Shown: positions 4,959 through 32,000, numbered from the stretch's first letter. The stretch is DNA of 32,000 nt from Oxalobacteraceae bacterium (GCA_965194595.1 CBDAEK010000001.1:666727-698726); one strand, 5' to 3'. Program-made: numbers and translations. Notes: generated by a model not told the origin, from the letters alone.

Positions 4959-6137
4959 CTAATTTACGGGATGGTAGTTTCGAAAAAACTCAGTAAGTCG
5001 ACTGACCGCTTCGACCAGATTCTCCATCGAGGTCGCATATGACACGCGAATATAACGCTGCGCTGCATGCGTTCCAAAATCCGCACCCGGCACCAACACA
5101 ACGCCAGTACTTTCAAGGATATCGCTGGTAAGTTTTACCGCATCATCACTCCAATGACTGCAATCGGCATATACATAAAACGCGCCGTCTGGTAACACTG
5201 GAATGTCGAACTGTAGTTTTTTCAAAGCCGGCACAATGAAATCACGACGACGTTGAAATTCAGCCTTACGCGCCTCAAAGATCGTCGTTGCTTCGGAAGT
5301 AAAACACGCTAAGGCTGCGTGCTGCGCTACGCTAGAAGCACAGATAAACATATTTTGAGAGAGCTTCTCGATCGCCGACAGCATCTGTGGTGGCACCACT
5401 AACCAGCCTAAGCGCCATCCAGTCATGTTGAAGTATTTTGAAAAACTATTAATCACAATGACATCGTCACCCAACGCGAGGGCCGATTCTGGCGATGAGT
5501 CGTAGCTCAAGCCTTGATAGATCTCATCCACCAAGGTGAATCCACCTTTCGCACGAACCACCTCAACAATACGCGCTAATTCGTTCGCCGCAATCGATGT
5601 ACCGGTAGGATTCGAAGGTGATGCTAACAACACGCCTGATGTATGAGGGCCCCAATGAGATTCGACTTGATTCGCTGTCAGCTGAAAACGCTCTGCGGGG
5701 CCACTAGGAATTAACTTTGCACGTCCTTCGAATGCAGCAACGAAGTGTCGATTGCAGGGATAGCTAGGGTCGGGCATCAGCACTTCACTATCGCGCTCAA
5801 TCAATGCCGCGCATGCCAATAACAATGCACCGGATGCACCTGCAGTAATAACGATCCGTGACGCTGGCACATCCAGCTTAAATTTATTTCGATAATGATC
5901 AGATACTGCTTGCCGCAACGTCGGCAAACCCATCGCCGAGGTGTAACGCATGGCACCGTCTTCCAGTGCGCGCGCGGCGGCTTTGAGTACAGGTTCAGCA
6001 GTTGGGAAATCCGGTTCGCCTATGCCCATGTGAATAACGGAACGACCCGCCTGCTCTAATTCAGCAGCACGCTTGATCACTTCCATTACACGAAATGGTG
6101 CTATCTCTTGCAGGCGACGTGCGAGAGTGAAATTCAT
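4959..6137 (-). CDS. Pyridoxal-phosphate-dependent aminotransferase, class I/II
   Basis: 392-aa ORF with the PLP-lysine motif SFSKYFNMTGWRLGW and PSNPTG. Substrate specificity cannot be called from the sequence alone. Confidence 0.85.
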   Translation of the reverse strand: MNFTLARRLQEIAPFRVMEVIKRAAELEQAGRSVIHMGIGEPDFPTAEPVLKAAARALEDGAMRYTSAMGLPTLRQAVSDHYRNKFKLDVPASRIVITAGASGALLLACAALIERDSEVLMPDPSYPCNRHFVAAFEGRAKLIPSGPAERFQLTANQVESHWGPHTSGVLLASPSNPTGTSIAANELARIVEVVRAKGGFTLVDEIYQGLSYDSSPESALALGDDVIVINSFSKYFNMTGWRLGWLVVPPQMLSAIEKLSQNMFICASSVAQHAALACFTSEATTIFEARKAEFQRRRDFIVPALKKLQFDIPVLPDGAFYVYADCSHWSDDAVKLTSDILESTGVVLVPGADFGTHAAQRYIRVSYATSMENLVEAVSRLTEFFRNYHPVN

Positions 6138-16916: not shown

Positions 16917-17338
16917 TGGCACACAGCTCAAGCCTGCGCGGTGGGCGTACTCGAAAATTCAAGGCAGAAATCAACGTCGTTCCTTATATCGACGTGATGT
17001 TAGTGCTACTGGTTATTTTTATGGTGGTCGCGCCCTTATCAACGCCCAGCATGATTAACTTGCCTAAAGCAGGCAAATCAAATCAGCCACCGACCGACTA
17101 CTTAGAAATTGAACTCAAACCAGATGGTTCAGCCACCGTCGGTATTCATGGCAAAAAAACACAAACAACCAGCAAGCGTGAAGAGCTTGGCATGCGCTTG
17201 CAAGAGCTGCATGAAAAATACCCTGAGCTGCCGCTAATGATATCGGCAGACAAAGATATTAAATACGACGAGGTAGTACAAACTATTTCGCAAGCCAACA
17301 AAACCGGCATAGGTCGAGTCGGTCTCTCCACCCGCTGA
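16916..17338 (+). CDS. tolR: Tol-Pal system protein TolR
   Basis: 140-aa ExbD/TolR protein containing INVVPYIDVMLVLLVIFMV. Confidence 0.9.
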   Translation: MAHSSSLRGGRTRKFKAEINVVPYIDVMLVLLVIFMVVAPLSTPSMINLPKAGKSNQPPTDYLEIELKPDGSATVGIHGKKTQTTSKREELGMRLQELHEKYPELPLMISADKDIKYDEVVQTISQANKTGIGRVGLSTR

Positions 17339-17345
17339 GAAAGTT

Positions 17346-18311
17346 TTGAACAGCGCCACCAGCCATTACCTTATTCCGGCCGAACCAGGCCGTGGAAGAG
17401 CGCTGGCACTCGCGGCACTCGTACATTTTTTGCTGCTGGTTTTTTTGTGGTTTGGTGTTTCTTGGCAAAGTGACACACCGACCGAAGTCGAAGCAGAAAT
17501 CTGGAGTCCCGTTGCGCGTGAAGCTGCTCCACCGCCACCGCCTCCGGTAGCTAAACCCATTCAAGAACCACCCAAACCTGTAGCAGCGGTTACACCACCC
17601 ACACCACCTGCACCCGTCGTCCAGCCTGCACCCGTCGTCCAGCCTGAACCCGCACAGCAAAAACTCGCTGAGCCTGACATCGCACTCGAAAAAGAAAAAA
17701 AACGTAAACAAGAAAAAGAAGATGCTGAACGCCTGAAAAAAGAAAAGCTCGCCGAGAAGAAAGCGCTTGAAGAAAAGCAAAAGCGCAAGAAAATTGCTGA
17801 TGCAGAAGCGAAAGAAAAAAAACGTAAACAAGAAAATGAAGATGCTGAGTTACTAAAAAAAGAAAAATTAGCAGAGCGAAAAGCCTTTGACGAAGAGCAA
17901 AAGCGTGCTGCGGTCGATAAAGCAGCGGATGACAAAATAAAACTGAGGATGCGAGACGACTTAATACGGCAAACGAAAGATGATGGCGCAGGTGATGCTG
18001 AAAAATCACAAGGGCCGCGCGGGGACAATAGCTACGGTCGCAAGGTGGCAGGATTAATAAAATCGCATACAATCTTCCCGCTGAACGATATTGCAGGCAA
18101 TCCCGGTGTCGAGTTCTTGATAGAGCTGCAGCCTGATGGTGGGCTTCGAAGCGAGCCAAAAATGACTAAATCATCCGGCATAGCAGCGTTTGATCAGGCC
18201 GTGAAACGCGCGATTGAAAAATCGACGCCTTTCCCAGCTGATCCATCGACTGGGAAAGTACCTGCAAGCATCAAAATCACTCATCTACTGAAGGACAGTG
18301 ATACGCGATGA
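17346..18311 (+). CDS. tolA: Tol-Pal system protein TolA (TTG start)
   Basis: 321 aa. It has an N-terminal anchor ALALAALVHFLLLVFLWF, a Pro-rich linker, a Lys/Glu/Ala-rich helical domain II and a C-terminal TolA/TonB-like domain. It lies between tolR and tolB. Confidence 0.85.
   Translation: MNSATSHYLIPAEPGRGRALALAALVHFLLLVFLWFGVSWQSDTPTEVEAEIWSPVAREAAPPPPPPVAKPIQEPPKPVAAVTPPTPPAPVVQPAPVVQPEPAQQKLAEPDIALEKEKKRKQEKEDAERLKKEKLAEKKALEEKQKRKKIADAEAKEKKRKQENEDAELLKKEKLAERKAFDEEQKRAAVDKAADDKIKLRMRDDLIRQTKDDGAGDAEKSQGPRGDNSYGRKVAGLIKSHTIFPLNDIAGNPGVEFLIELQPDGGLRSEPKMTKSSGIAAFDQAVKRAIEKSTPFPADPSTGKVPASIKITHLLKDSDTR
17607..17642 (+). repeat. Perfect 18-bp tandem duplication inside tolA (PAPVVQ x2)
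   Basis: The unit cctgcacccgtcgtccag occurs at 17607-17624 and again at 17625-17642. Confidence 0.9.
17691..17906 (+). repeat. Imperfect 120-bp direct repeat inside tolA domain II
   Basis: The sequence aaagaaaaaaaacgtaaacaagaaaa(a/t)gaagatgctga... starts at 17691 and again at 17811. The protein copies are KEKKRKQEKEDAERLKKEKLAEKKALEEKQKR and KEKKRKQENEDAELLKKEKLAERKAFDEEQKR. Confidence 0.85.
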
Positions 18312-19579
18312 AAAGATATTTCTTGAAGCTTATTGCTCTCGCCACTTTTTTGGCGGTCATGCCGTATGCACAAGCACAGCTCAAGGTCGACATTTCAGGG
18401 GTCGGCGCTAACCAGATACCTATCAGTATCGCCAGCTTTGCCGATGAGCCACTTACTGGACACTCCATTAGCGGCATCATTCGCGCCGATCTTCAGCGCA
18501 GCGGTCTGTTCAAAATAATTGAGGCTTCTGAGATTCTCAGTGAAACAGCGCCGGTTAATCTAGCAAGCTGGAAAGCCAAAGGCGCTGACGCTCTCGTCAC
18601 TGGTAGCGTTGTTAAACACTCTGATGATCGCATTGAATTGCGCTACAAGCTCGCTGATACGGTGCGTACCGTCGATCTAGCTGTGCATAGCGTCAGCACC
18701 CAATCGCAGTTTGCGCGCCTGGCCGCGCACAAAATCGCCGACGATATTTTTGAGAAGCTCACCGGTATTCGCGGCGCCTTTGCGACTCGCATTGCGTACG
18801 TCAGCCGATCTGCTGGTGAATACCGACTTGAAGTGGCGGATTCCGATGGTGAGAGCGCATTCGTTGCCCTACGCTCTAGCGAGCCCATTATTTCGCCCAC
18901 TTGGTCACCTGACGGCACTAAATTAGCCTACGTATCATTTGAACTTAAAAAACCCGTGGTCTATGTTCAAGATCTCGCCAATCGCCGCCGTATCGTCGCC
19001 GCCAATTTCAAAGGAAGTAATTCCGCACCTGCGTGGTCACCCGATGGAAAAAAACTCGCTATTGCTTTATCGCGCGAAGGTCTAACGCAAATCTATCTGA
19101 TCAATGCCGATGGGTCTGACGTTAAAAAACTCACCCGATCAAACGGTATCGATACCGAGCCCTGCTTCTCTCCTGATGGGCAGAGCATCTACTTCACCAG
19201 TGATCGCAGCGGCGGCCCGCAAATTTACAAAATGAACCTGGACGGTGCTGATCTAAAACGACTGACCTACGGCGGCTCCTACAATATCAGTCCATCGGTC
19301 TCGCCAGACGGTAAAATGATGGCCTATATTTCGCGCCGCGAGGGCAAGTTCCAATTGCACGTTCTTGATCTGATAACTTCGCAAGAACAACGACTCACTG
19401 ATACATCGCATGATGAATCGCCAAGCTTCGCTCCGAACAGTCGTTACATTTTGTTTGCAACCGAAGCCTCAGGACAGGGTTCATTGACCGTCGTATCGAT
19501 TGATGGCACAGCGAAATACACCTTATCGGCCAAGGCATCAAATATTCGCGAGCCCTCTTGGGGGCCGTTTTCCAAATAA
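18308..19579 (+). CDS. tolB: Tol-Pal system beta-propeller protein TolB
   Basis: 423-aa ORF with the signal peptide MKRYFLKLIALATFLAVMPYAQA and repeated WSPDG / FSPDG propeller motifs. Confidence 0.95.
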   Translation: MKRYFLKLIALATFLAVMPYAQAQLKVDISGVGANQIPISIASFADEPLTGHSISGIIRADLQRSGLFKIIEASEILSETAPVNLASWKAKGADALVTGSVVKHSDDRIELRYKLADTVRTVDLAVHSVSTQSQFARLAAHKIADDIFEKLTGIRGAFATRIAYVSRSAGEYRLEVADSDGESAFVALRSSEPIISPTWSPDGTKLAYVSFELKKPVVYVQDLANRRRIVAANFKGSNSAPAWSPDGKKLAIALSREGLTQIYLINADGSDVKKLTRSNGIDTEPCFSPDGQSIYFTSDRSGGPQIYKMNLDGADLKRLTYGGSYNISPSVSPDGKMMAYISRREGKFQLHVLDLITSQEQRLTDTSHDESPSFAPNSRYILFATEASGQGSLTVVSIDGTAKYTLSAKASNIREPSWGPFSK

Positions 19580-21067: not shown

Positions 21068-21143
21068 GGGTCGTTAGCTCAGCTGGTAGAGCAGCGGACT
21101 TTTAATCCGTTGGTCGCAAGTTCGAATCTTGCACGACCTACCA
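21068..21143 (+). tRNA. tRNA-Lys (anticodon UUU), CCA encoded
   Basis: The sequence gggtcgttagctcagctggtagagcagcggacttttaatccgttggtcgcaagttcgaatcttgcacgacctacca folds as a cloverleaf. The anticodon loop is CUUUUAA, the T-loop is GTTCGAATC, and the acceptor pairs GGGTCGT with ACGACCT. Confidence 0.95.
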
Positions 21144-21303: not shown

Positions 21304-22686
21304 ATGCCAGATATATCAACAACTACGGTCGTTCTCAAAGAGCAGGAACTAAATCTAGTTCTGCGCCCTGAGACAAAGAACTGGCAGATACATTACAAAA
21401 TTGGTGCTTCAAAAACGTGGCATAGAAAGACATCAGGCACTGCAGATTTAGATGAAGCAAAAAAAATTGCAGATGATGTTTATCACGAAGCGCGAGTGCT
21501 TGATCGTCGTGGCTTAGCAATCGTTAGTAGAAAATTTAAAAGTGTTGCAGAAGTTGTTAGCAAACGTTTTCGAGATGATGTTGCTGCTGGAACTGGAAAA
21601 AAAAGTTACGCAGACTACTATCGTGCAATCGATAGTTACCTCATCCCCTTCTTTGGTAACTACAACATTGATCGCGTCACTCCTGCTGTTATCAATGACT
21701 TTCATCGCTGGCGTAAAGAGAAAGTGGGCTATGAACTCAAAGCCAGCACACAGAACAATCACAACGCTGCATTGAATGCTGTTTTTGATTACGCCGTTGA
21801 AAAAAGTTATCTGGTCGAGAGCCAACGGCCAAGTCTCAAGAACACAGGTGCTGCCACTGCCAATCGAGGCTCATTCACCACCGACGAGTTAATTCAACTA
21901 CAAACGTTTATTCAGCAGTGGAGTGCCAACGCACGTAATGAGCGCAGCCGCTGGCTACGAGAGCTCTTGGGACTCTATGTAACCTTTGTGGCGTGTACGG
22001 GTGTTAGACCAGGCACTGAGACGGAGGATCTGTGTTGGAAGCATATTGAGTTTATTGAAAAACCCAATATGCGTGTGATCCACATCACGCTGCCCAAAGG
22101 CAAGCGTGGCAGCAGAACGCTGATTGCTAGAAATGAACTCTGGCCCTTGTTGGACAAACTGCGTCAGCTGGATCCTGAGCTGGCTGACATGACATTGGAA
22201 GATTTAATCAAGGCCAAATCACCCAAGCTACTTTTTAGAATGCGCGATGGAACCCAGCCATACAATCTAGTTAATTCATTTGCCGACTGTCTTGAAACCT
22301 GCGAACTTAGCAAAAGTGACAGGGATGGCAAAGACCGCAGCTTGTACAGCCTTCGTCACTACTACGCTACGCAGCGGATATTGGAAGGAGTTAGCTACGG
22401 ACAGCTGGCGAACCAGATGGGAACATCGGTCTTGATGATCGAGCGGCACTACAGCCATCTAAAGCCCTTGATGATTGCCGAGCAGTTGGCAGGCGCCATA
22501 CCCGACGCCAAGACTGCTGAAGCTGAAGAAATCCGACGTTTTGCCCAACTAACGCCCATTCAAGCCGACGTGATGAGCTTGATTGCTGCCACAACAGGTG
22601 TACACATCGCTTTGGCTCAAGCTAACCCCAGAGCCACAGACGAATTGCAAAACGCACTTAAAAAATCCAAAGCCAAAGCCCGCTAG
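21304..22686 (+). CDS. Tyrosine-type site-specific integrase (phage integrase family)
   Basis: 460-aa ORF. It has catalytic-domain motifs (TGVRPGTE, LRHYYATQ, ERHYSHL ending in the nucleophile Tyr region) and an N-terminal SAM-like core-binding region. Confidence 0.85.
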   Translation: MPDISTTTVVLKEQELNLVLRPETKNWQIHYKIGASKTWHRKTSGTADLDEAKKIADDVYHEARVLDRRGLAIVSRKFKSVAEVVSKRFRDDVAAGTGKKSYADYYRAIDSYLIPFFGNYNIDRVTPAVINDFHRWRKEKVGYELKASTQNNHNAALNAVFDYAVEKSYLVESQRPSLKNTGAATANRGSFTTDELIQLQTFIQQWSANARNERSRWLRELLGLYVTFVACTGVRPGTETEDLCWKHIEFIEKPNMRVIHITLPKGKRGSRTLIARNELWPLLDKLRQLDPELADMTLEDLIKAKSPKLLFRMRDGTQPYNLVNSFADCLETCELSKSDRDGKDRSLYSLRHYYATQRILEGVSYGQLANQMGTSVLMIERHYSHLKPLMIAEQLAGAIPDAKTAEAEEIRRFAQLTPIQADVMSLIAATTGVHIALAQANPRATDELQNALKKSKAKAR

Positions 22687-22808
22687 GTAGCAAAAAAATG
22701 CTACTGACGCTAACCTATCGCCTAACCCAGTAATTCTTGCTTACAAAACCCAAGAGCATCCTCACGAGCGACACATCTTATGAGTGAAGACAATTCATAC
22801 AGGAGGTT

Positions 22809-23195
22809 ATGGTGACAAGGGAGATTTTAGGAGAGCAACAGATACATCCTGCGATACGTCAGATGGTATCGTCTCACTTTCGCGATACAGTTGAGGACGT
22901 AAAAAATGCCACCGCTGAGCACAGAATAGTCATCGTTGGTATGTCGGGTAACCCCTTTGTATCTAAAGCAAGACAAATACTGCATGACCGAAATATTTCT
23001 TACAAATATTTAGAATACGGTAGCTATCTTAGCCAATGGCGACGACGCAATTCACTTAAAATGTGGACTGGCTGGCCCACGTTCCCCATGATATTTGTCG
23101 ACGGTGTCTTAATCGGTGGTTATCAAGACCTTCAATCATTAATACATTCTGCAGAATTAATTGGGCAACTTGCATCTGAACGCCGATACGATTGA
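22809..23195 (+). CDS. Glutaredoxin-fold protein without any cysteine (monothiol-Grx-like scaffold, active site replaced)
   Basis: 128 aa. WPTFPMIFVDGVLIGGYQDL matches the WPTFPQ..V.GE..GG.D signature of Grx4/GrxD-type glutaredoxins. The position of CGFS is occupied by GNPFVS, and the whole protein contains no Cys. AGGAGG at 22801-22806 is only 2 nt from the ATG, so the GTG at 22812 is an alternative start. Confidence 0.55.
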   Translation: MVTREILGEQQIHPAIRQMVSSHFRDTVEDVKNATAEHRIVIVGMSGNPFVSKARQILHDRNISYKYLEYGSYLSQWRRRNSLKMWTGWPTFPMIFVDGVLIGGYQDLQSLIHSAELIGQLASERRYD

Positions 23196-23202
23196 TAAAC
23201 AC

Positions 23203-23682
23203 ATGAGCCAAGAAGTCATTGATTATTTCAACGAACTTGCCAAGACAGCTGTCAATCGCTGTCATGATCGCGTTGCGGACTTGAAGTTTTTTGAAAGTGT
23301 AAAAGCAAGGCTAGCTGCTGGAGAAGATTTAAGCGGTGAGCTTCCACAGCTGAAAAACGTCAAATCTAGTGACGCCATCTTCGTTGTGGAGAAACTGATC
23401 AAACGCTGCTACGACGACATGGCAGGTTATTGGGATATTCCTAGCAGCGGTGGGATTGACTGCAAGGTCACGTACGAGATGGCTGACAACGAAATCATCC
23501 CACGATTTTCTGCTGTATACCGCATAAAAACAGACGTCGGCGCAGTCACCTTCACCTTGGCTAGTAAAGGCAACCACGTCGACTTGGATGTTGATACGGG
23601 AAGTGTCAAAAATAAGGACACTACGACTGCACTAAGGGAAGTTAGTAGCCTCTTGCTATTTGCTCGTTTACAGCAGAATTAA
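23203..23682 (+). CDS. Hypothetical protein (159 aa), co-oriented with and 7 nt downstream of the Grx-like gene
   Basis: The ORF 23161-23682 is trimmed to the ATG at 23203 (MSQEVIDYFNELAK). I recognise no motif. Confidence 0.45.
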   Translation: MSQEVIDYFNELAKTAVNRCHDRVADLKFFESVKARLAAGEDLSGELPQLKNVKSSDAIFVVEKLIKRCYDDMAGYWDIPSSGGIDCKVTYEMADNEIIPRFSAVYRIKTDVGAVTFTLASKGNHVDLDVDTGSVKNKDTTTALREVSSLLLFARLQQN

Positions 23683-24172
23683 CAAGCTCAAGACGTTGCA
23701 AAGCAAACAAGGTCTCTATTCGAAGATCATTTAGGTCTACTAACGACATACTTTCTTCATCAATCAGTGCCGAATATTTTCCATCTTCAAGCATGAGTGA
23801 AGGGACTAGATTTGAGTTTATATGCTCATAATTAATTCGGCTGTACTCATATATCTCAAGATCAATAATGTAGTCGTATACCTCATCTCTCAGCGGCGTT
23901 GTATCAAAATGACGTCCCGAATCATCCATATTCCACCAGTGCTGAATAATTGCAGTGCAATTATTTAATTTATCAAATTTTTTTACTATCCAGCCACTTA
24001 TACAAATAATTTTTTTATTGGTAAGCTTACTCTTTTCAGCAATGTCATAGGCATTAGTAAAACAACGCTTGGCTAGCCCCCCGCCAACATTTTTTATATC
24101 CGAGCGAAAAACAATTGGCTTGCCTGAATAAGCTTGTCGGGCTTTAATAAAATCTCTCGTTGCTTTATACAT
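23642..24172 (-). CDS. Hypothetical protein; possible transglutaminase/papain-fold cysteine peptidase (Cys37-His78-Asp90 pattern)
   Basis: 176 aa with a strong SD (aAAGGAGaatcaatATG). The pattern KRCFTNAY ... ISGW ... IIQHWWNMDDSGRHFDTTP resembles the C..FA ... H.W.E ... W..FD.T core of transglutaminase-like peptidases. This is a by-eye assignment only. Confidence 0.3.
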   Translation of the reverse strand: MYKATRDFIKARQAYSGKPIVFRSDIKNVGGGLAKRCFTNAYDIAEKSKLTNKKIICISGWIVKKFDKLNNCTAIIQHWWNMDDSGRHFDTTPLRDEVYDYIIDLEIYEYSRINYEHINSNLVPSLMLEDGKYSALIDEESMSLVDLNDLRIETLFALQRLELVNSAVNEQIARGY

Positions 24173-24206
24173 ATTGATTCTCCTTTCAAATTTAAAAATT
24201 AAAAAA

Positions 24207-25688
24207 TTATTGTTCAGATTTAGAAAATCCCTCTAACCTATTTCCCTTGATTGAAAAGTATGGGTTTTGCATTTGGGTCTGCATTTCGCCAATGATTTCG
24301 TGTTGAACATCAACAGATAATTTGTAGCGAACAATAAAAGCGTCATGAATATTGGCAATGGGCCTAATGCTGTACTTGGCCAATACAGCCCTAGCCACAT
24401 CCATCGCTTGGGTTTCGCAGTGTTGATAGAGGTACGCTACTGCTCTTGATTTACTGGGATTTACATTCGGCGTCACCAATGGGCTGAAGTAAATATCAGG
24501 CATTCCATCCTTCATCCCTTCGGCCAAATACTTGTCCAGTTGTGCCTGCTCTTGAATAAACTGTTTGACGATGGGGCACGATAGAAATCGCTCACGCTGT
24601 TCCTGATTTTGTATAAGACTTACCAAGGATGGATTGACCCATTCACCATTAGCTTCACGCCAGCCGTTGTTGTTGGCTCTAGCACCAAACCCAATAGCAG
24701 TGACTGCTTGCTTGATTAATGAATCCTGATAATCAACCGCCAACCCCGAATCCCGACCAAAAGTCTCAGATCGCACATCTCGCATGAATTCTTTGCGATT
24801 AGTCACGTACAAGATAGAGGCCCAATACAGTCGATCAGAGTCTTTTTCTGGATAGAGCTCTCGAGCTAATTCCTTTGCAAAGGTCAGCTTCCAAGTCACC
24901 ACTGCTGAACGAATATCGTATTCCCAGCAATTGCCTAGCATGGCTCGCCTCAAGGTTTTATTAACGTTTTGAACGCTAATCCCCGAGTAGTACATGCGTC
25001 CAAATTCACTGGGTTTACGACGTTGTGGAAATAACCCATTCGTGGTTTTTGCAACCGCTAAAATCGTCATTGCCTGTTCGGTGTATGACCTAACGGTAGA
25101 AGGGGAAAGCTTTGTGGCTTTGGTAGTAAGCCAGACGATATACGCTTGTAATGAGGCAATATCGATTGGGGCATCATCAAATGTAGCTAAGCGCTGCCGC
25201 TTATCAATCATGGTGAAATAATCTGGATAAAGCTTTGCAAACACATCTGCATTAGCTTTTGTATCCATGCATAGCAACTCATCCAGCGAACTCTCCGATG
25301 TGGCGCCGTTAAGTGTTTTGGCTACTGCATCTGCACCACCTTTGAGGGTAACTAACTCCGTTAACTTAACCAGAGAAACTAGTCCCGTTAGGTTGTTACC
25401 AACCTCTACAATCCTGACCAGTTCTAAGTGATTGGCTTTAAGCCACGCATGAAGCCGCTCCTTGCCCGCATTTAATTGCGGACCTTTATGCGTTAGATCC
25501 GCTACTGGGATGGAATACAGATTAAATTTTTCTTCATAAGCGCTGCGCCCGCGCAGAATGGATTTAAAAATCAAGTCTTCTAACAAAACCCGATATTTTT
25601 CCAATGCCTTTTCCGCACATCGAGGTGGCTTGGGATAACTCGAGCGCAACTTAGTGAGCACAATGGGATCAATATCAATTGTGAACAT
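24207..25688 (-). CDS. Family-A (Pol I / T7-like) polymerase-domain protein, stand-alone, no exonuclease domain
   Basis: 493 aa with SD GAGGA 7 nt upstream. FGRMYYSGISVQNV aligns gap-free with Klenow TGRLSSTDPNLQNI. The motif A candidate is WEYD258IRSAV. ETFG-x14-K326QAVTAIGFG aligns gap-free with EVFG-x14-KAINFGLIYG (O-helix). Motif C is NIHD449AF. The K-to-D spacing is 123, versus 124 in Klenow. Confidence 0.5.
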   Translation of the reverse strand: MFTIDIDPIVLTKLRSSYPKPPRCAEKALEKYRVLLEDLIFKSILRGRSAYEEKFNLYSIPVADLTHKGPQLNAGKERLHAWLKANHLELVRIVEVGNNLTGLVSLVKLTELVTLKGGADAVAKTLNGATSESSLDELLCMDTKANADVFAKLYPDYFTMIDKRQRLATFDDAPIDIASLQAYIVWLTTKATKLSPSTVRSYTEQAMTILAVAKTTNGLFPQRRKPSEFGRMYYSGISVQNVNKTLRRAMLGNCWEYDIRSAVVTWKLTFAKELARELYPEKDSDRLYWASILYVTNRKEFMRDVRSETFGRDSGLAVDYQDSLIKQAVTAIGFGARANNNGWREANGEWVNPSLVSLIQNQEQRERFLSCPIVKQFIQEQAQLDKYLAEGMKDGMPDIYFSPLVTPNVNPSKSRAVAYLYQHCETQAMDVARAVLAKYSIRPIANIHDAFIVRYKLSVDVQHEIIGEMQTQMQNPYFSIKGNRLEGFSKSEQ

Positions 25689-25875
25689 ACGTAGTCCTCG
25701 TTATTTTTTGTTTAAATTCTTAAAAAATACACACACTTATAGTAAGAAGCTCCGCTTCCAAAAGCCCTGTGCTTGCCCGATGCAAGTGAAAAGAGAGAGG
25801 CGAAGCCGAGGTCAGACCCTCTGCTCCTTTTTTTAGAGGTGAGGTATCAGTAGTGTTTTTGACGGTCAGAGGCGT

Positions 25876-25912
25876 CAAGTATCTGGACGCTAATTGCCCG
25901 TCCAGATACTTG
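25876..25912. repeat. Perfect 14-bp inverted repeat (hairpin) between the 322-aa gene and the polymerase-like gene
   Basis: The arm caagtatctggacg (25876-25889) is the perfect reverse complement of cgtccagatacttg (25899-25912), with a 9-nt loop. No U-run follows on the transcribed (minus) strand. Confidence 0.8.
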
Positions 25913-25927
25913 CGCTACAGAGTTTTG

Positions 25928-26896
25928 TTACTTGGCTGCACCAAAGCCCACTTGCTTCTCAAGCTCACCTACCAACTCCGAGAGCTCAGAAGTGTCAGCA
26001 CCCATACGCTCAGCTATCGAGCCCAACAACTGATCTTCAAACGAGCGATCAAACACGTTGCCTTGCACAACGTGATACTTGCCCGTACTAGGGTTACGCA
26101 CCGACATAAACAGTACAAAGCGACCTGCTTCGTACTTAGGGTCCACCGTGTCGTCCTTGTTACCTGCCTTGCCTTTCTTTGCAGGTTTCTCAGGTACCCA
26201 GTTGTTTAGGACGTCGTTATAATCCAGCGTCGTTTGTGCGCTGTGCGCCAAAATTGTGTACAAACGACCTACCAGATCAGTACGTGAGTTTTTATCATCA
26301 CGTAGAGTTTTGGCCAGTACCTCAGCGTTAGCTAAATCGTCAGCTTCGTGATCAAAGACTTTCTCAACCACTTTAGTAACACCGCCGTGCTCAGCTAGAA
26401 AATCTGCAAACTCGTTTGTTGCCACACCCAGTGCTGCTGCCTTTTCTAAAGCAATCGTATAGTTGTTACGTGACTGACGTGATTGGTCAGAAAACACATA
26501 GCGCACAGCAACAGCCATCGTGCTTGCATTAGTGGGTACTGACTGCAGATCACGCTGCTGTATTGCTTTAATCAGCTCTTGCCGTGTCTCACGCTTTAAG
26601 GGTGAGCGCTCTACAGAGTCACCGTAGGCATAGACCTGTTCTAGCAAAGACCACAGTGCACGGTCAGAACGATCCAATACGTCAACCTTTAGCTTGCTGT
26701 AGCTCTCAACCAAAAAGTCAGCGTGCGAAATCGCTTGCTGCACACCAGGAGTTGTTGTGCCAAGTGCTTTGCCAACTGCACTGGCTAAGGGCTTTAAACG
26801 GAAAACATTGCTCAAAGGGGTTTTGATAGCTGCGCCCGAAGTTGCAACGAAAGCGTTGGTCGAGACAGGTGCTGCTGCGAGAGTAGTTGTAGACAT
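25928..26896 (-). CDS. Hypothetical protein (322 aa), first gene of the minus-strand module
   Basis: A long ORF with protein-like composition and an Ala/Thr-rich, probably disordered N-terminal ~60 aa. I recognise no motif. Confidence 0.5.
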   Translation of the reverse strand: MSTTTLAAAPVSTNAFVATSGAAIKTPLSNVFRLKPLASAVGKALGTTTPGVQQAISHADFLVESYSKLKVDVLDRSDRALWSLLEQVYAYGDSVERSPLKRETRQELIKAIQQRDLQSVPTNASTMAVAVRYVFSDQSRQSRNNYTIALEKAAALGVATNEFADFLAEHGGVTKVVEKVFDHEADDLANAEVLAKTLRDDKNSRTDLVGRLYTILAHSAQTTLDYNDVLNNWVPEKPAKKGKAGNKDDTVDPKYEAGRFVLFMSVRNPSTGKYHVVQGNVFDRSFEDQLLGSIAERMGADTSELSELVGELEKQVGFGAAK

Positions 26897-26994
26897 GGCG
26901 ATACCTTTTTAAAATAAAGTTAATAAGTTATTACTATCGATCCGCGGTATTGCGTTTCGATACGCCATTAGACCAATTCATAACATTTTTAATC

Positions 26995-27003
26995 TGATAT
27001 AAT
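26995..27003 (+). promoter_or_regulatory. Extended -10 promoter element (TGaTATAAT) upstream of the 330-aa gene
   Basis: tgatataat lies at 26995-27003, 32 nt upstream of the ATG at 27035. It sits in the 138-bp divergent intergenic region. Confidence 0.45.
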
Positions 27004-27034
27004 TTTTCCTGTTATGAATTACAGAAATTAGCCC

Positions 27035-28027
27035 ATGACTACCCCCAGAAGCCGCTTTTACAAAGGCCTCACTGGCTTTACGGCGAGTACAGAGGAAGAG
27101 ATTTATGAGATAGCGGACAACAGCATTTACCGCTGGTGGTGGGAGTTCATGCGCCTTAGCCCGATCTTTTGGTATGCGGGCAAAACTGGCCATCAACCCA
27201 TTAAAGACAGCATGGCCAAGACCTACCAGTCAGCTGGCAATTTAAAGTTGATTTCGTTTACTGGATGGTGGGATCAGTTCGGAAAATACATCTTTGAAGA
27301 ACCACAGCGCCCAAGACCTGCACGAAAAGTAGACATAGAACAGCTACAACAGCACAAGCTGTATAAGAAAAGTATCTTGGTAGAGATACCGTTAACAGCC
27401 ACCAATAAAAAAATACACAGCGATATTAAGAAAATACTTAAAGCCGAAGGTCATAATCTCACTGCCTTGTCCGTAGTACAGGCCAGCGAATCTATGCTTA
27501 AACTGCACAGCAAAAAGTATCATTCGGCAGCCATAGAAAATGAGTATTGGGTTTTGTTATACCGAATACTTTATCCAAAGACTCCGTTGTGGAAAATCGG
27601 CGATAGATTACAAATCAATCCCACAAATCGAGTTCGAGGATTAAATCCAAGAGAGGTCTCTGACGAATATTATCGAGGCAGAGGTCCCATTGCAAAAATG
27701 CAGAGCGTGGTTGGACGTTGCTACTACAAGGCTCGATTCGCTAGGTACCATGCTGAGCATGGGAGCTTTCCGAACTACACTAAAGTTGATGAGGAACTAG
27801 ATTTCAAGCCGTTTGGTGCAGAAATACACCCAGATTTTTTAGCTGCAACTGATGAATCAACGACTAAAGATTCGGCTTGGCAAAAACACATACGTCGTTT
27901 GTATGAAGAGAAGCTTCACGATCAAATTCTTCATAAAAATAATATCACGGGATTATTGGTCACCGAGCTAAAAGCTTCAGGTCGATTGAAGCAATTTACG
28001 TCAGGAGAAATAGACAGCATTAATTAA
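27035..28027 (+). CDS. Hypothetical protein (330 aa) with a Trp-rich N-terminal motif and a possible central HTH
   Basis: It has the N-terminal motif SIYRWWWEFMRLSPIFWY, a central segment TPLWKIGDRLQINPTNRVRG that looks helix-turn-helix-like, and KARFARYHAEHGSFPNY. It is transcribed divergently from the polymerase module. Confidence 0.45.
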   Translation: MTTPRSRFYKGLTGFTASTEEEIYEIADNSIYRWWWEFMRLSPIFWYAGKTGHQPIKDSMAKTYQSAGNLKLISFTGWWDQFGKYIFEEPQRPRPARKVDIEQLQQHKLYKKSILVEIPLTATNKKIHSDIKKILKAEGHNLTALSVVQASESMLKLHSKKYHSAAIENEYWVLLYRILYPKTPLWKIGDRLQINPTNRVRGLNPREVSDEYYRGRGPIAKMQSVVGRCYYKARFARYHAEHGSFPNYTKVDEELDFKPFGAEIHPDFLAATDESTTKDSAWQKHIRRLYEEKLHDQILHKNNITGLLVTELKASGRLKQFTSGEIDSIN

Positions 28028-28192
28028 ATCCTGCATGTGTCCATAGTCTGGACAACTCAAGTTTGTCCAAAGCACTTTGTGCGTCATTTATATGTAAGGT
28101 CGACAGGCGTCAATAATCTTGACAGAATTGGGCTGCAGTCGTCAGCAATAAATGCCCCTTGGGTAAATACAATACCCAAGGAGATAACGCAC

Positions 28193-28564
28193 ATGAGATT
28201 TTATGAATTTGCCCCAGCTAAGCCTGTACTAAAAATCAGCCAACAGCAACAAGCACAACAAGCTGGGCTGCAAAGCACCACCCCTCCAACACCTTGGCCA
28301 CAGAATACGCAGCCAACACCCGCACCACGATCAGTCAAGGTGTATCCCGAGAAGTGGCAGCGCCAGTGGGTTCAAAAATACCTAGCTGCGAAAATCGCCC
28401 AAAATGCCCAAACTGTTCGACCCAGCAAAGAAGATCTGATTCGGGCTTACATGCTGTATGGCGAAGCTCGACGTAAAGCCAATCAAGATTATGAGGAAAC
28501 ACAGGGGAAAGATGAAGAATCTGGCTGGGGAAACGATCACCGCTGGACTCGTCGAGATAATTAA
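28193..28564 (+). CDS. Hypothetical protein (123 aa), Gln/Pro-rich N-terminal half
   Basis: The ORF 28037-28564 is trimmed to the ATG at 28193, which is preceded by cAAGGAGataacgcac. Its stop codon overlaps the stop codon of the convergent recombinase gene. Confidence 0.4.
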   Translation: MRFYEFAPAKPVLKISQQQQAQQAGLQSTTPPTPWPQNTQPTPAPRSVKVYPEKWQRQWVQKYLAAKIAQNAQTVRPSKEDLIRAYMLYGEARRKANQDYEETQGKDEESGWGNDHRWTRRDN

Positions 28565-29226
28565 ACCAACTCCACCGCCCTACGCTTCATATCGTCATTA
28601 ACGTCAATGTAGGCTTGGGTGGTGCTGATTGACCTATGTCCAGCTAAACTCATCAGCACACGCACACCAACGCCTTTTGCTGCCAAGTTAGTGATGAAAG
28701 TACGCCTACCCGAATGACTACTACCACCAGCAATGCCCGCTCGTTTGTACAAGTAATGAAAGTGCTGTGCTAGGGTGTTAGGGGTGAACCCCTCACGCTT
28801 TTGTGTGTAGAACAGTGGTGAGTTAGGATTAGTGGGTTTGTGGCTGCGTACATAAGCCTCAAGCTCACGCTTTAGTTTGGCATTGACGAACACAGTACGA
28901 GCATGACGCCCTTTGGTCTGTGCGGGTTCTAGCTGTATCTCATCACGTATCTTGCCCACGTCATCCACTACGTCTGCATATCTCAAATAAGCCACTTCAC
29001 CTACACGCATACCAGCCCAATGCGTTACTAACAGCATTGTGCGATTACGAAGTGCATGTTTGTGCTGTGCGACATAATCAAGCACTTGCTTCAAATTTTG
29101 CTGCGTTAGTGTTTTTGCTTGCTTGGGCATAGTTTGTTTTCGCTCCCCTAACCAAAACTTTGCTATGCGTACAGCGTAATTTCTTTGTTTTGTTTGGGCG
29201 ACCTGTTTTTGGTGGTTTTTTTTCAA
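28561..29226 (-). CDS. Short tyrosine recombinase, mostly catalytic domain (about 190-221 aa)
   Basis: Catalytic motifs are present: WAGMRVGEV (Arg I), HSGRRTF (His-x-x-Arg) and AGHRSISTTQAYIDV (His/Tyr nucleophile region). There is no long N-terminal arm-binding domain. A TTG start at 29226 has SD GAGGA 7 nt upstream. An internal ATG (MPKQAK) is an alternative start. Confidence 0.75.
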   Translation of the reverse strand: MKKNHQKQVAQTKQRNYAVRIAKFWLGERKQTMPKQAKTLTQQNLKQVLDYVAQHKHALRNRTMLLVTHWAGMRVGEVAYLRYADVVDDVGKIRDEIQLEPAQTKGRHARTVFVNAKLKRELEAYVRSHKPTNPNSPLFYTQKREGFTPNTLAQHFHYLYKRAGIAGGSSHSGRRTFITNLAAKGVGVRVLMSLAGHRSISTTQAYIDVNDDMKRRAVELV

Positions 29227-29411
29227 ATTTTCGTCCTCTGTAAATTCAATGACTTAGCTACTGATTACAGCAAAATCAAATCAAATGCTAATTCTGTTTG
29301 ATTTGTATATTTAGCTAATCTGTTGCTGATCTCGCAGGATTTTGTGCTGAAAATTCAGGCACAGCGAAAGAGTTGATTGAAATAACGAGATCGAGTTGCG
29401 AAATTTCGCCG

Positions 29412-29434
29412 TTATTCACAAATTATGTGGATAA
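29412..29434. promoter_or_regulatory. Pair of inverted DnaA-box consensus sites
   Basis: TTATTCACA at 29412-29420 matches TTATNCACA. TGTGGATAA at 29426-29434 is the reverse complement of TTATCCACA. They are separated by 5 bp. The 12-bp palindrome GCGAAATTTCGC (29398-29409) lies immediately upstream. Confidence 0.5.
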
Positions 29435-30253
29435 CTCAGTGCGACTGCGTACACACCCTACAAGCTGTTTTCGCTCTGTATAGCTGCCAAAGCACTACTG
29501 ATGCTTTTAAAGCTGCTGTAGAGCTTGTAAAGCAGCACATTGCTGCTGGGTTTTGTGTGACCGCAGCTCGGCATTTGTAGTGTTTGCTGTTTTACTGATT
29601 ACGAAATAGCTAAGTGATGTTGAGAGCGAACTGCGTTCGCTGTGCCTTCGCTATCTTCGCTCACTCGCGTTCGCTTAGTTAGCTCGTCACAGATATTTCA
29701 AGTTCTAGATTTCAAATGCTTGGAAGTATTTCGAAATTGGTTTGTTTGAAATCATGTTATGTGTTTGGCTTTCGCTAGATTCAACCCACACTGAGCCTTA
29801 CACAGCAGGCTCAGTGTGAGAGAAAGATCTTTCGCTGAGTTCTTTACTCCACTGCACTTCGGCACAACCTCTACGAGGTCAAGGGCGGTTTTGCTGTCTC
29901 CTTTTACGTGCTGCTGAATTAAAACGCAATCCACACCACAGCCGAAGTGCCGACCATGGCAGGTTTGTAGGTTGCCGTGTGAGCATTGCCTACTCGTGAT
30001 GCTCTGCCGTTGAGGCAGCATCTTTGTGCTTGATATTTCATTCTCTGGTCAATTGGGCTAGCAAAACCCAATAGCATCAAGGGTAGTGACCATGAGTCCC
30101 TGCTACTGCTCAGGATTTCCGTCCCTGCGATCATGTCTGTCCAGGTCTAGGGTGCCATTAGACTGAGTGGCACTGCTCGTTATCAGTAGTAATACGGGAT
30201 AGCACAGACTGTTCATTGCTGACGTCCCTCACAGTTATTTAGTCAAACCAAAC

Positions 30254-30290
30254 AAAACCCACGAAAAATCTAATGGGTTTTGTGGGTTTT
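30254..30290 (+). terminator. Terminator-like hairpin at the right end of the ORF-free region
   Basis: The stem aaaacccac (30254-30262) pairs with gtgggtttt (30282-30290), and an alternative inner pairing aaaaccca/tgggtttt is possible. T residues follow on the + strand, and TTTTGTTTGGTTT follows on the - strand. Confidence 0.4.
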
Positions 30291-30396
30291 AGACAGCAGC
30301 GTGGCAATCTCTCACAAAATCTGCGTAATTTTGGTCGTTCTTTGACCAAATCAGTCATAACTTATGTGTGCAGTTCAACTTTTAAGGAGAGCACAC

Positions 30397-30837
30397 ATGA
30401 ATGCATTAACTGGATTAAAGCTAGTCGCTAGCAAGAAAAATCGTACCCTTTCCCCAGTAGCCCATCGCCGTAACAAACTCGTCAACAAGCTGCATGAGCA
30501 GATTGAGTTATGCGAAGCACAAAAAGCTGGTGAGATTTATGCACCCCGTCGTCTGCGTACTGTCACTAACAAGCAAACTGGTGAACGTGTGACTATTGAA
30601 GCTGTCAAGCGTGTGAAGGAATGGTTTTGGATTAATGACGCTGGAAAAATCAATCTTGCTGTGCGCTATGGCAGCAAAGTGCTGGAACTAGCCAAGGGCA
30701 AGAATGCCATTGAGCTTGGCAGTGGTGACGAACTAATAGCTGCCTTACATGCACTTAAAGCAGCGGCACTGGCAGGGGAACTTGACGCACAGATTGAAGC
30801 TGCCAGTGGAGCGTTAAGGGCTGGGTTTGTTAAGTAG
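30397..30837 (+). CDS. Hypothetical protein (146 aa)
   Basis: The ORF 30364-30837 is trimmed to the ATG at 30397, which is preceded by tAAGGAGagcacac. The sequence MNALTGLKLVASKK...AGELDAQIEAASGALRAGF looks like a conserved island/ICE-associated protein family, but I cannot name it reliably. Confidence 0.55.
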   Translation: MNALTGLKLVASKKNRTLSPVAHRRNKLVNKLHEQIELCEAQKAGEIYAPRRLRTVTNKQTGERVTIEAVKRVKEWFWINDAGKINLAVRYGSKVLELAKGKNAIELGSGDELIAALHALKAAALAGELDAQIEAASGALRAGFVK

Positions 30838-31203: not shown

Positions 31204-31410
31204 TTAAATTCCAACGTTTACCGCTAACTTGTCTTTTACATCAGAAATCCTCCTACATACAAGATTATGCATCTCGTTATGGGATGCACTTTCCGGGGGG
31301 ATGCACTTTCCGGGGGCAAGCTCAACATCGGCAAAGCTAAGCATGCCCTGACCATTCTGCAGAAACGTTTGGCACCCACCAAGAAAAAGTGTCAAACTCA
31401 AAATCGGCAT
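31204..31410 (-). CDS. Possible small lipoprotein ORF (68 aa) interrupted by, or created by, a 17-bp tandem duplication
   Basis: The N-terminus MPILSLTLFLGGC has a lipobox. The reading frame passes through the duplication at 31282-31315. With a single copy, the ORF would stop after about 41 codons. Confidence 0.25.
   Translation of the reverse strand: MPILSLTLFLGGCQTFLQNGQGMLSFADVELAPGKCIPPESASHNEMHNLVCRRISDVKDKLAVNVGI
31282..31315. repeat. Perfect 17-bp tandem duplication
   Basis: The unit ggatgcactttccgggg occurs at 31282-31298 and is repeated exactly at 31299-31315. Confidence 0.95.
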
Positions 31411-31823: not shown

Positions 31824-32000
31824 TCAAGTACGAAGTGCAACACGGTTTAAAGATTCATGAAACACCTGATGAGGAGTTTTAAATCCTAATCGTTTTCTAG
31901 GGCGGTGATTCAATCGATCTTCAATCATTTTAAGCTCGGCATCAGTAACAGTCGATAAGTGCCGCTTTTTAGGAATGTACTGCCGTAATAAGCCGTTGTA
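31824..32000 (-). mobile_element. IS30-family transposase, C-terminal ~58 codons (the rest lies beyond the window)
   Basis: My minus-strand translation reads YNGLLRQYIPKKRHLSTVTDAELKMIEDRLNHRPRKRLGFKTPHQVFHESLNRVALRT*. The L(N)xRPRKxLGFKTPxxVF tail is characteristic of IS30-family DDE transposases. The stop codon is at 31826-31824. Confidence 0.7.

Follow-up and report, generated by a model that had tools for sequence, protein, structure and literature searches.

A mobile-island backbone marked by a predicted Pol I-fold enzyme, a DUF6641 protein, a short tyrosine recombinase, and a 23-nucleotide box

TV-Pol proteins are standalone, minimal family A polymerase cores of 400 to 600 amino acids (aa) that contain no nuclease domain, carry a beta-hairpin with an invariant Arg plus two catalytic Asp residues, and are predicted to be primase-polymerases; their genes neighbor those of lambda-type integrases in mobile elements of bacteria, at insertion hot spots shared with restriction-modification genes, and an adjacent gene encodes an all-helical companion protein (PMC2579912). 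CcPol-MP, for which primase activity has been shown, consists of a truncated family A polymerase and a small downstream partner and occurs in SCCmec and other elements of Bacillota (PMC7581432, PMC10061031). A 2023 reclassification divided PolA into 19 clusters and, in the text searched, mentions CCPols separately (PMC10201439), and the sections searched of a 2026 survey of bacterial polymerases name only the A-family groups PolA1-3 (PMC12926913). Here, we analyzed a stretch of 32,000 nucleotides (nt) from an Oxalobacteraceae bacterium (GCA_965194595.1, CBDAEK010000001.1:666727-698726; the whole stretch is referred to as the window), in which a gene for a 493-aa polymerase-like protein lies within a genomic island. 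This gene is part of a mobile-island backbone, the hallmarks of which are a hidden polymerase I (Pol I)-fold enzyme, a DUF6641 partner, a short tyrosine recombinase, and a 23-nt box. The polymerase-like gene is located as follows.

24207-25688, minus strand: divergent family A-fold polymerase of 493 aa without an exonuclease domain (AlphaFold2 model, Foldseek, and invariant residues)

The polymerase-like protein and its described relatives

The 493-aa protein has no match in Pfam, PHROGs, NCBIfam, PADLOC, or the sequences of the Protein Data Bank (PDB). At least 567 homologues were identified, all of them uninformatively named and without a Pfam domain, and a profile search of 1.84 billion cluster representatives recovered 781 clusters at 50% identity with E <= 0.001 (318 with E <= 1e-30). 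The family is thus large, yet it is unrecognised by every domain library used, and it is undescribed in the literature searched, including the sections searched in two recent surveys of family A and bacterial polymerases (PMC10201439, PMC12926913). An AlphaFold2 model computed from a 40-sequence alignment (pLDDT 85, pTM 0.75) was compared with the PDB by Foldseek, and the best 50 of 75 matches (E <= 0.001) were all family A DNA polymerases, including Klenow, Taq, Bst, Mycobacterium smegmatis Pol1, T7 DNA polymerase, Pol theta, and the apicoplast polymerase (E = 1.9e-6 to 2.5e-4, with E = 2e-6 for Klenow; probability, 1.00; TM-score, 0.30 to 0.41). The original prediction, made from the sequence of the window, had called this protein polymerase-like, in agreement with the modeled fold. 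We regard a family A (Pol I-like) fold, together with the island setting described below, as very probable.

Eight residues (i.e., R231, R247, D258, K326, G335, E425, H448, and D449) are invariant in 58 members of the family, down to 18% identity. On the basis of model position and spacing, D258 is assigned as the motif A Asp, K326...F334-G335 as motif B, and H448-D449 as motif C, and R231 belongs to a predicted hairpin (strands 219-226 and 232-234). Alignments by hhalign to the single sequences of Escherichia coli Klenow, T7 DNA polymerase, and T7 RNA polymerase had probabilities of 5% or less and served as motif guides only; in the weak alignment to Klenow (5%), FGR231 corresponds to TGR668, SVQNV to NLQNIP, and R247 to R682. 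The residue four positions before K326 is variable, the residue four positions after it is Thr, and there is no Glu at D258+5. At that motif A position, Pol I carries Glu710, the steric gate responsible for sugar discrimination. Inspection by eye revealed no DEDD motif of a 3'-5' exonuclease domain, no domain search aimed at the N-terminal 215 residues having been made. Motif arithmetic (D258 versus D705, with a domain start at about 520) gives only approximately 70 more residues upstream of motif A than in the Klenow polymerase domain.

The extreme divergence from active PolA enzymes and the absence of one basic residue of the RxxxK motif would be compatible with a catalytically dead relic that has a structural or DNA-binding role, such as an origin-binding initiator recruiting host polymerases at the box described below. 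We consider such a relic quite unlikely, given that invariance across the 58 sequences extends to both metal-binding Asp residues, the His of motif C, the Lys of the fingers, and two Arg residues that contact the primer; a catalytic set that is kept down to 18% identity is the signature of a retained active site. If active, the protein would represent a new and very divergent branch of the Pol I lineage, without half of the RxxxK motif.

Compared with the published description of TV-Pol, the protein is similar in length (493 aa), in its hairpin Arg (R231), in its two catalytic Asp residues, in being nuclease-less, and in having integrase neighbors, and the all-helical TV-Pol companion recalls a mostly helical 322-aa protein encoded next to it. 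It differs from TV-Pol in that the defining RxxxK fingers motif is not conserved (Lys326 only), in that the PSI-BLAST and hidden Markov model (HMM) links to Pol I by which TV-Pol was defined are absent for the 493-aa family, and in that no D5-like helicase association is seen. The CcPol-MP/PolA-SSB systems share with this locus a truncated family A polymerase in an integrative element with a site-specific recombinase nearby, as well as a small downstream partner of no recognisable family, which here is the DUF6641 protein, once found fused to the polymerase. However, those systems reside in Bacillota rather than Pseudomonadota, are accompanied by serine rather than tyrosine recombinases, and have a helicase gene in the operon, which is not the case here; furthermore, the CcPol sequence is recognisable as PolA, whereas that of the 493-aa family is not. 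The primase activity of CcPol-MP provides a concrete mechanism for comparison. If the 493-aa enzyme is active, it would provide a second independent case in which an integrative element, here from Proteobacteria, pairs a family A polymerase with a small protein. Pipolins and casposons (PMC5695915) are also integrative elements, frequently found at tRNA genes, that encode a tyrosine recombinase together with a DNA polymerase of their own, but their polymerases belong to family B, whereas the fold here is that of family A and there is no homology to piPolB.

Relatives of the polymerase were also sought in phages. A tblastn search of the phage collection at E <= 0.01 returned nothing, and in a search against 50,697 phage records at E <= 10, the sole match was remote (E = 2e-3), with no match to Ma-LMM01, a TV-Pol carrier. 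Remote homology over the catalytic core was detected in a 767-aa protein of Nitratidesulfovibrio phage SRB7757, a 142-kb phage (hhalign probability, 97%; E = 3e-11), and IMG/VR contains eight contigs with homologues of 28 to 34% identity. Among the viral contigs, L096 is a small tailed-phage contig with genes for a large terminase, portal, scaffold, major head protein, and endonuclease VII, and L098 encodes two AAA ATPases after the polymerase homologue. No canonical polymerase was seen in the retrieved parts of the phage contigs bearing homologues, which fits a replicative role of the 493-aa family.

Island setting and conserved gene neighborhood

The other principal features of the island in the window are as follows.

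21068-21143, plus strand: tRNA-Lys(UUU), located 3' of tolA-tolB-pal-cpoB (ARAGORN; Rfam tRNA, 74 bits)
21304-22686, plus strand: 460-aa (large) tyrosine integrase, pointing into the island (Phage_int_SAM domains; phrog_1 integrase, 1.7e-30)
23161-23682, plus strand: conserved gene of 159/173 aa beside the large integrase, no Pfam match (iterated HMM)
23642-24172, minus strand: 176-aa accessory protein with invariant Cys37/His78/Asp90 (32 homologues; 7/93 loci)
25928-26896, minus strand: 322-aa conserved protein with a disordered N terminus (AlphaFold2 model; 156 homologues)
27035-28027, plus strand: 330-aa conserved protein with an N-terminal LYxWWxxFLRxSxDYW motif (family alignment; 40 loci)
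28561-29226, minus strand: 221-aa catalytic-domain-only (short) tyrosine recombinase (Phage_integrase, 5.8e-27)
30364-30837, plus strand: small DUF6641 protein, likely start ATG at 30397 (PF20346, 4.9e-8)

Positions 1 to 21000 of the window contain ordinary chromosomal genes (ubiD, ribBA, ribD, glyA, tolA, tolB, pal, and cpoB). These genes stop at tRNA-Lys(UUU), which is followed by the large integrase and by DNA that has no match in complete E. coli genomes (megablast) or in the phage and plasmid collections at normal thresholds; the region thus lies inside a genomic island at tRNA-Lys. The tRNA gene is the integration target and the left end of the island. Homologues of the large integrase stand at the tRNA end of 24 related loci, where they adjoin tRNA-Asn in most cases and tRNA-Lys, -Val, or -Arg in others. 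Our confidence in this island context, taken together with the polymerase fold, is high.

To the right of the integrase, the original prediction had delineated three minus-strand open reading frames (ORFs) of 176, 493, and 322 aa (23642-24172, 24207-25688, and 25928-26896) separated by gaps of 34 and 239 bp, and it had placed the 330-aa gene in divergent orientation next to them. These coordinates hold, as do the ribosome-binding sites noted for the second and third genes (GAGG about 9 nt before the ATG of the 493-aa gene and AAGGAG 7 nt before that of the 176-aa gene) and the statement that the trio belongs to no described defense, replication, or conjugation family, since all three proteins are unmatched in Pfam, PHROGs, NCBIfam, and PADLOC. 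It had further described the three genes as a module. Gene neighborhoods were examined at 92 related loci, obtained by exact look-ups and a scan of one genome per species, and in the window itself (93 loci in total), with each family counted by iterated HMM searches over all ORFs. The families were detected as follows.

Polymerase family: 81/93 loci
DUF6641: 54/93 loci
Short tyrosine recombinase: 54/93 loci
330-aa family: 40/93 loci
322-aa family: 32/93 loci
Large integrase: 24/93 loci
173-aa neighbor of the large integrase: 21/93 loci
176-aa family: 7/93 loci

The neighborhoods do not keep the three genes of the proposed module together, an outcome that the original prediction itself had named as refuting it; the 176-, 493-, and 322-aa genes are therefore not a coinherited module. 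Genomes that encode polymerase homologues are almost all from freshwater Burkholderiales (Limnohabitans, Polynucleobacter, Comamonadaceae, and Oxalobacteraceae), and several of them contain two or three island copies. The commonest gene order is short integrase (-) ... polymerase (+), DUF6641 (+), [cargo], 330 (-), 322 (+), [cargo], 173 (-), large integrase (-), and tRNA. The minimal inserts L006, L007, and L016 consist of the short integrase, the polymerase, DUF6641, and one 209-aa gene, with nothing else. Among the proteins, the short tyrosine recombinase accompanies the polymerase most consistently, and the DUF6641 gene lies immediately 3' of the polymerase gene in most of its 54 loci; one protein (P0304) is a polymerase::DUF6641 fusion. 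In the subclade of the window, DUF6641 is displaced to a position beside the short integrase, as in the window and L010, and the polymerase gene is followed instead by an unrelated 97-, 157-, or 196-aa gene or by the 176-aa gene. Neither DUF6641 nor DUF6876 is mentioned in the literature searched.

The 176-aa family is present in the window and six other loci, of which L090 to L092 have no polymerase gene in the retrieved DNA. Its motifs are GGGxxxKCFxNA, SGW, IIQHWWN, and FDTTP, and the Cys37/His78/Asp90 pattern pointed out in the original prediction is real, the three residues being invariant in 31 homologues of 37 to 92% identity. We take these motifs to resemble a transglutaminase-type Cys-His-Asp core, a likeness that no profile or PDB sequence match backs: the 31 members had no Pfam match at E <= 5, single-sequence and profile searches of PDB sequences found nothing, and the 176-aa protein is unmatched in PHROGs, NCBIfam, and PADLOC. 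We read the leading idea of the original prediction as a defense system against phages or plasmids, in which a polymerase-like effector or sensor would act with this Cys-His-Asp partner. The cargo of related islands does include type I and Eco57I-like restriction-modification genes, a reverse transcriptase, and a protein kinase, and the 176-aa gene is found beside restriction-modification genes of these two types in L090 and L092. However, seven island proteins had no PADLOC match at E <= 0.1, the 176-aa and polymerase genes occur together in one lineage only, and the polymerase gene is part of the backbone rather than the cargo, being present in the minimal inserts and in replication-type neighborhoods of phages. 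We therefore judge a defense system very unlikely. The 176-aa gene is exchangeable island cargo and, in this lineage, a chance neighbor behind the polymerase gene, not a partner of the polymerase.

The 322-aa protein, which the original prediction had called a complete orphan, has 156 detectable homologues of equal length. Its N terminus is disordered, as predicted (residues 1 to 45, pLDDT < 50), and the remainder of the AlphaFold2 model (pLDDT 79) comprises a helical domain and, C-terminal to it, a small beta/alpha domain; for this model, Foldseek found no match in the PDB (best E = 0.85) or BFVD (best E = 0.28). The gene is paired divergently with the 330-aa family in nearly all of its 32 loci; a position directly 5' of the polymerase gene is restricted to the subclade of the window (about 14 loci). 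No Pfam match was found among 34 members of the 330-aa family, and the 330-aa protein of the window is also unmatched in PHROGs, NCBIfam, and PADLOC. The 322/330 pair, divergent throughout, is a separate conserved unit, probably with regulatory or initiator functions.

The gene convergent with the 176-aa gene, which had been listed as a 159-aa ORF, is a real conserved gene. It lies tail to tail with the 176-aa gene, with the 41-bp overlap (ending at 23682) that had been reported, and its family occurs in 21/93 loci, adjoining the large integrase in about 20 of them. Its product is possibly an excision or regulatory factor.

The overall architecture resembles that of tycheposons and phage-inducible chromosomal island (PICI)-like islands (10.1101/2020.12.28.424599), in which an inward-pointing tyrosine integrase at a full-length tRNA gene is combined with a replication module at or near the opposite end and with variable cargo, including defense genes, in planktonic bacterial hosts with small genomes. 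The backbone is different, consisting here of the PolA-fold enzyme, DUF6641, DUF6876, the 322/330 pair, and a second, short recombinase; moreover, the window contains no partial-tRNA attR, and no capsid-interference genes are present here. If the polymerase is active, these loci would constitute a defined island family (i.e., backbone genes plus a 23-nt cis element) that moves defense and other cargo among key lake bacteria.

The box upstream of the polymerase gene and the proposed role of the backbone

Two conserved cis elements lie in the spacer between the 322- and 493-aa genes, the length of which is itself conserved within the subclade (235 to 263 nt).

25722-25745, minus strand: box of 23 to 24 nt, TTACTATAAGTGTGTGTATTTTTT, with its TACTATAAG core about 55 nt before the polymerase ATG (62 nt when counted from the start of the 30-nt scoring window)
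25872-25912, minus strand: hairpin overlapping the conserved palindrome GCGTCCAGAwwCTGGACGC, just after the stop codon of the 322-aa gene

The consensus of the box is aTTACTATAwGyGTGTGACTTTTT, also written aTTACTATA(A/T)G(C/T)GTGTGACTTTTT. The box occurs on the same strand 5' of the polymerase gene in 84/84 loci with a known start, usually about 105 to 113 nt from it (42 to 76 nt in the subclade of the window), and it is nearly invariant over 23 nt, though the polymerases are only 35 to 66% identical to that of the window. Sequence information is absent 5' of the box, which accordingly has no -35 element, and a sigma-70 scan called no promoter there. An ORF that could be scored lies 3' of 95 strict matches, and in 76 cases it is a polymerase gene. 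The remaining 19, again all in the same orientation, stand before genes that include those for an Xre-like repressor, QSregVF_b, transporters, and a small serine recombinase. Some loci have inverted GTCACAC copies or iteron-like repeats after GTGTGAC. These features suggest a portable promoter-like or operator-like element, and candidate readers would be either host RNA polymerase with an island regulator or the 493-aa polymerase itself.

In the leaders of L018, L043, L053, and L056, two to four iteron-like (A)GTCACACACCT...TTTGCA repeats stand 3' of the box, inverted relative to GTGTGAC; their arrangement suggests candidate sites for a dimeric DNA-binding protein. On viral contig L096, two identical 33-mers, ATTACTACTATAAGCCGCACACCTTTTTGTAAA, at 5756 and 15696 (minus strand) resemble the island box but are oriented against the genes; in reverse complement, they read like a TTTACA-15-TATAGT promoter. 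Box-like matches in viral contigs L098 and L099 were rejected, as they correspond to the reverse complement of an ordinary TATAAT -10 hexamer.

The perfect 14-bp-stem hairpin described earlier in the 239-bp gap was recovered, with arms at 25876-25889 and 25899-25912 that are 100% complementary over 14 nt around a 9-nt loop; by our estimate, about 0.002 perfect hairpins of this kind are expected by chance in 32 kb. RNAalifold identified the palindrome as a helix shared by eight loci of the subclade, with three compensatory pairs (e.g., GTCAAAA-A-TTTTGAC in L002), and the spacer folds more stably than shuffled controls (z = -2.8). The hairpin is not followed by a T-run, and a terminator scan made no call. 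Because a conserved structure follows the 322-aa gene and the polymerase gene has its own promoter-like box, we infer two transcription units; the single operon originally proposed for the three minus-strand genes is unlikely.

The near invariance of the box despite divergent proteins, the lack of a -35 element and of a called sigma-70 promoter, and its presence before other island genes could be explained if the 493-aa enzyme were a minimal single-subunit, site-specific RNA polymerase or RNA primase that transcribes or primes box-marked genes, with the box as its promoter or initiation site. The TACTATAAG core presumably resembles T7-type (CACTATAG) and yeast mitochondrial (ATATAAGTA) promoters. 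In the protein, motif C (IHDAF) is similar to IHDSF of T7 RNA polymerase, the only hhalign match to that enzyme, and the position D258+5 is without Glu, unlike Pol I with its Glu710. However, the best 50 of the 75 structural matches are all DNA polymerases, GR...QN...R resembles the Pol I primer-terminus motif, and 493 aa leave the enzyme without the promoter-recognition N-terminal domain and specificity loop of the T7 type. The box also holds a usable host -10 hexamer (TACTAT), and the GTGTGAC half-site, with inverted repeats in some loci, is operator-like. An RNA polymerase or RNA primase is therefore an unlikely reading. The same low expectation applies to the bolder version in which the 493-aa protein would be the smallest known sequence-specific single-subunit polymerase of the Pol I/T7 lineage, starting RNA or DNA de novo at the box, either alone or with DUF6641. 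If such box specificity were true, one small enzyme and one short site would make up a private transcription or priming system.

Most likely, the 493-aa enzyme and the DUF6641 protein would form the island's own replicase or primase-polymerase. In this scheme, one of the two tyrosine recombinases would excise the island as a circle, the conserved 23-nt box would drive transcription of the polymerase gene, and the 493-aa polymerase would copy the excised circular form, a mode of action that has been proposed for TV-Pol and CcPol-MP enzymes. We favor this full explanation, including a replicase or primase-polymerase function, with moderate confidence. The enzyme and box form a compact pair that might serve as a tool.

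Several observations weigh against a replicative polymerase encoded by a mobile island. The polymerase assignment draws on a predicted structure (TM-score of about 0.4) and motif logic: 40 family members had no match in Pfam even at E <= 10, and profile searches of PDB sequences, including one with a broad alignment, retrieved no polymerase, so that the kinship is visible only in the predicted structure and the motifs. Within motif B, one of the two basic RxxxK residues is kept (K326, with F334-G335). No helicase, single-stranded DNA-binding protein, or origin was identified in the backbone (helicase domains as judged from annotated contexts), and DUF6641 is 4.7 kb away from the polymerase gene in the window. 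Extrachromosomal forms were not apparent either: none of the loci spanning a whole contig had a terminal overlap indicative of a circle, and tblastn of the polymerase-like protein against 72,556 plasmid records (E <= 0.01) found no homologue. Finally, no second copy of the last 23 to 32 nt of tRNA-Lys that could serve as attR was found in the window, allowing up to three mismatches; with no second tRNA 3' end in the window, the far end of the island is probably beyond position 32000. The ends of the minimal element L006 likewise have no convincing att repeats.

Lineage-specific genes and minor sequence elements

A glutaredoxin-domain gene (22809-23195; PF00462, 4.4e-8) lies between the large integrase and the 173-aa gene and is found in no other locus, on which basis we regard it as lineage-specific cargo. 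On the other side of the 330-aa gene, a 175-aa gene (28037-28564) has a 4-bp tail-to-tail overlap with the short integrase gene (28561-29226), and its homologues hold the same place in five other loci (L010, L011, L028, L029, and L034); the 175-aa protein had no match in Pfam, PHROGs, NCBIfam, or PADLOC. Elsewhere, related islands and their flanks contain a 613-aa reverse transcriptase (RVT_1; L002, 4391-6232), a group I intron beside the large integrase (L092, 16207-16422), and a Betaproteobacteria toxic small RNA (L088, 676-738); the cargo also comprises genes for a TPR protein and a Ser/Thr kinase.

The 8-mer CAAAACCC (extended form, approximately AACAAAACCCAATA) occurs in nine copies within 22744-30282, on both strands and in the island only, versus an expectation of 1.2 in the whole window and zero copies in the 21-kb chromosomal part. 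It was rejected as a family-wide iteron, its enrichment being confined to this lineage (with the near-identical L008) and L050. A full-length Polynucleobacter-1 RNA (RF01718) at 30045-30178 on the minus strand (84.7 bits versus a gathering score of 37; E = 2.6e-17) lies in the 1.1-kb noncoding stretch that separates the short integrase from DUF6641; as it is missing from seven related loci, it was rejected as a backbone element. Its presence suggests that the host is Polynucleobacter-like. Near the right end of the window, a 17-nt unit, GGGATGCACTTTCCGGG, is present as a perfect tandem duplication (31281-31314). In the chromosomal part, an AT skew of +0.30 at 17000-18500 coincides with tolA (TonB_2 C-terminal domain) and is ordinary, given the repetitive, charged middle region of tolA.

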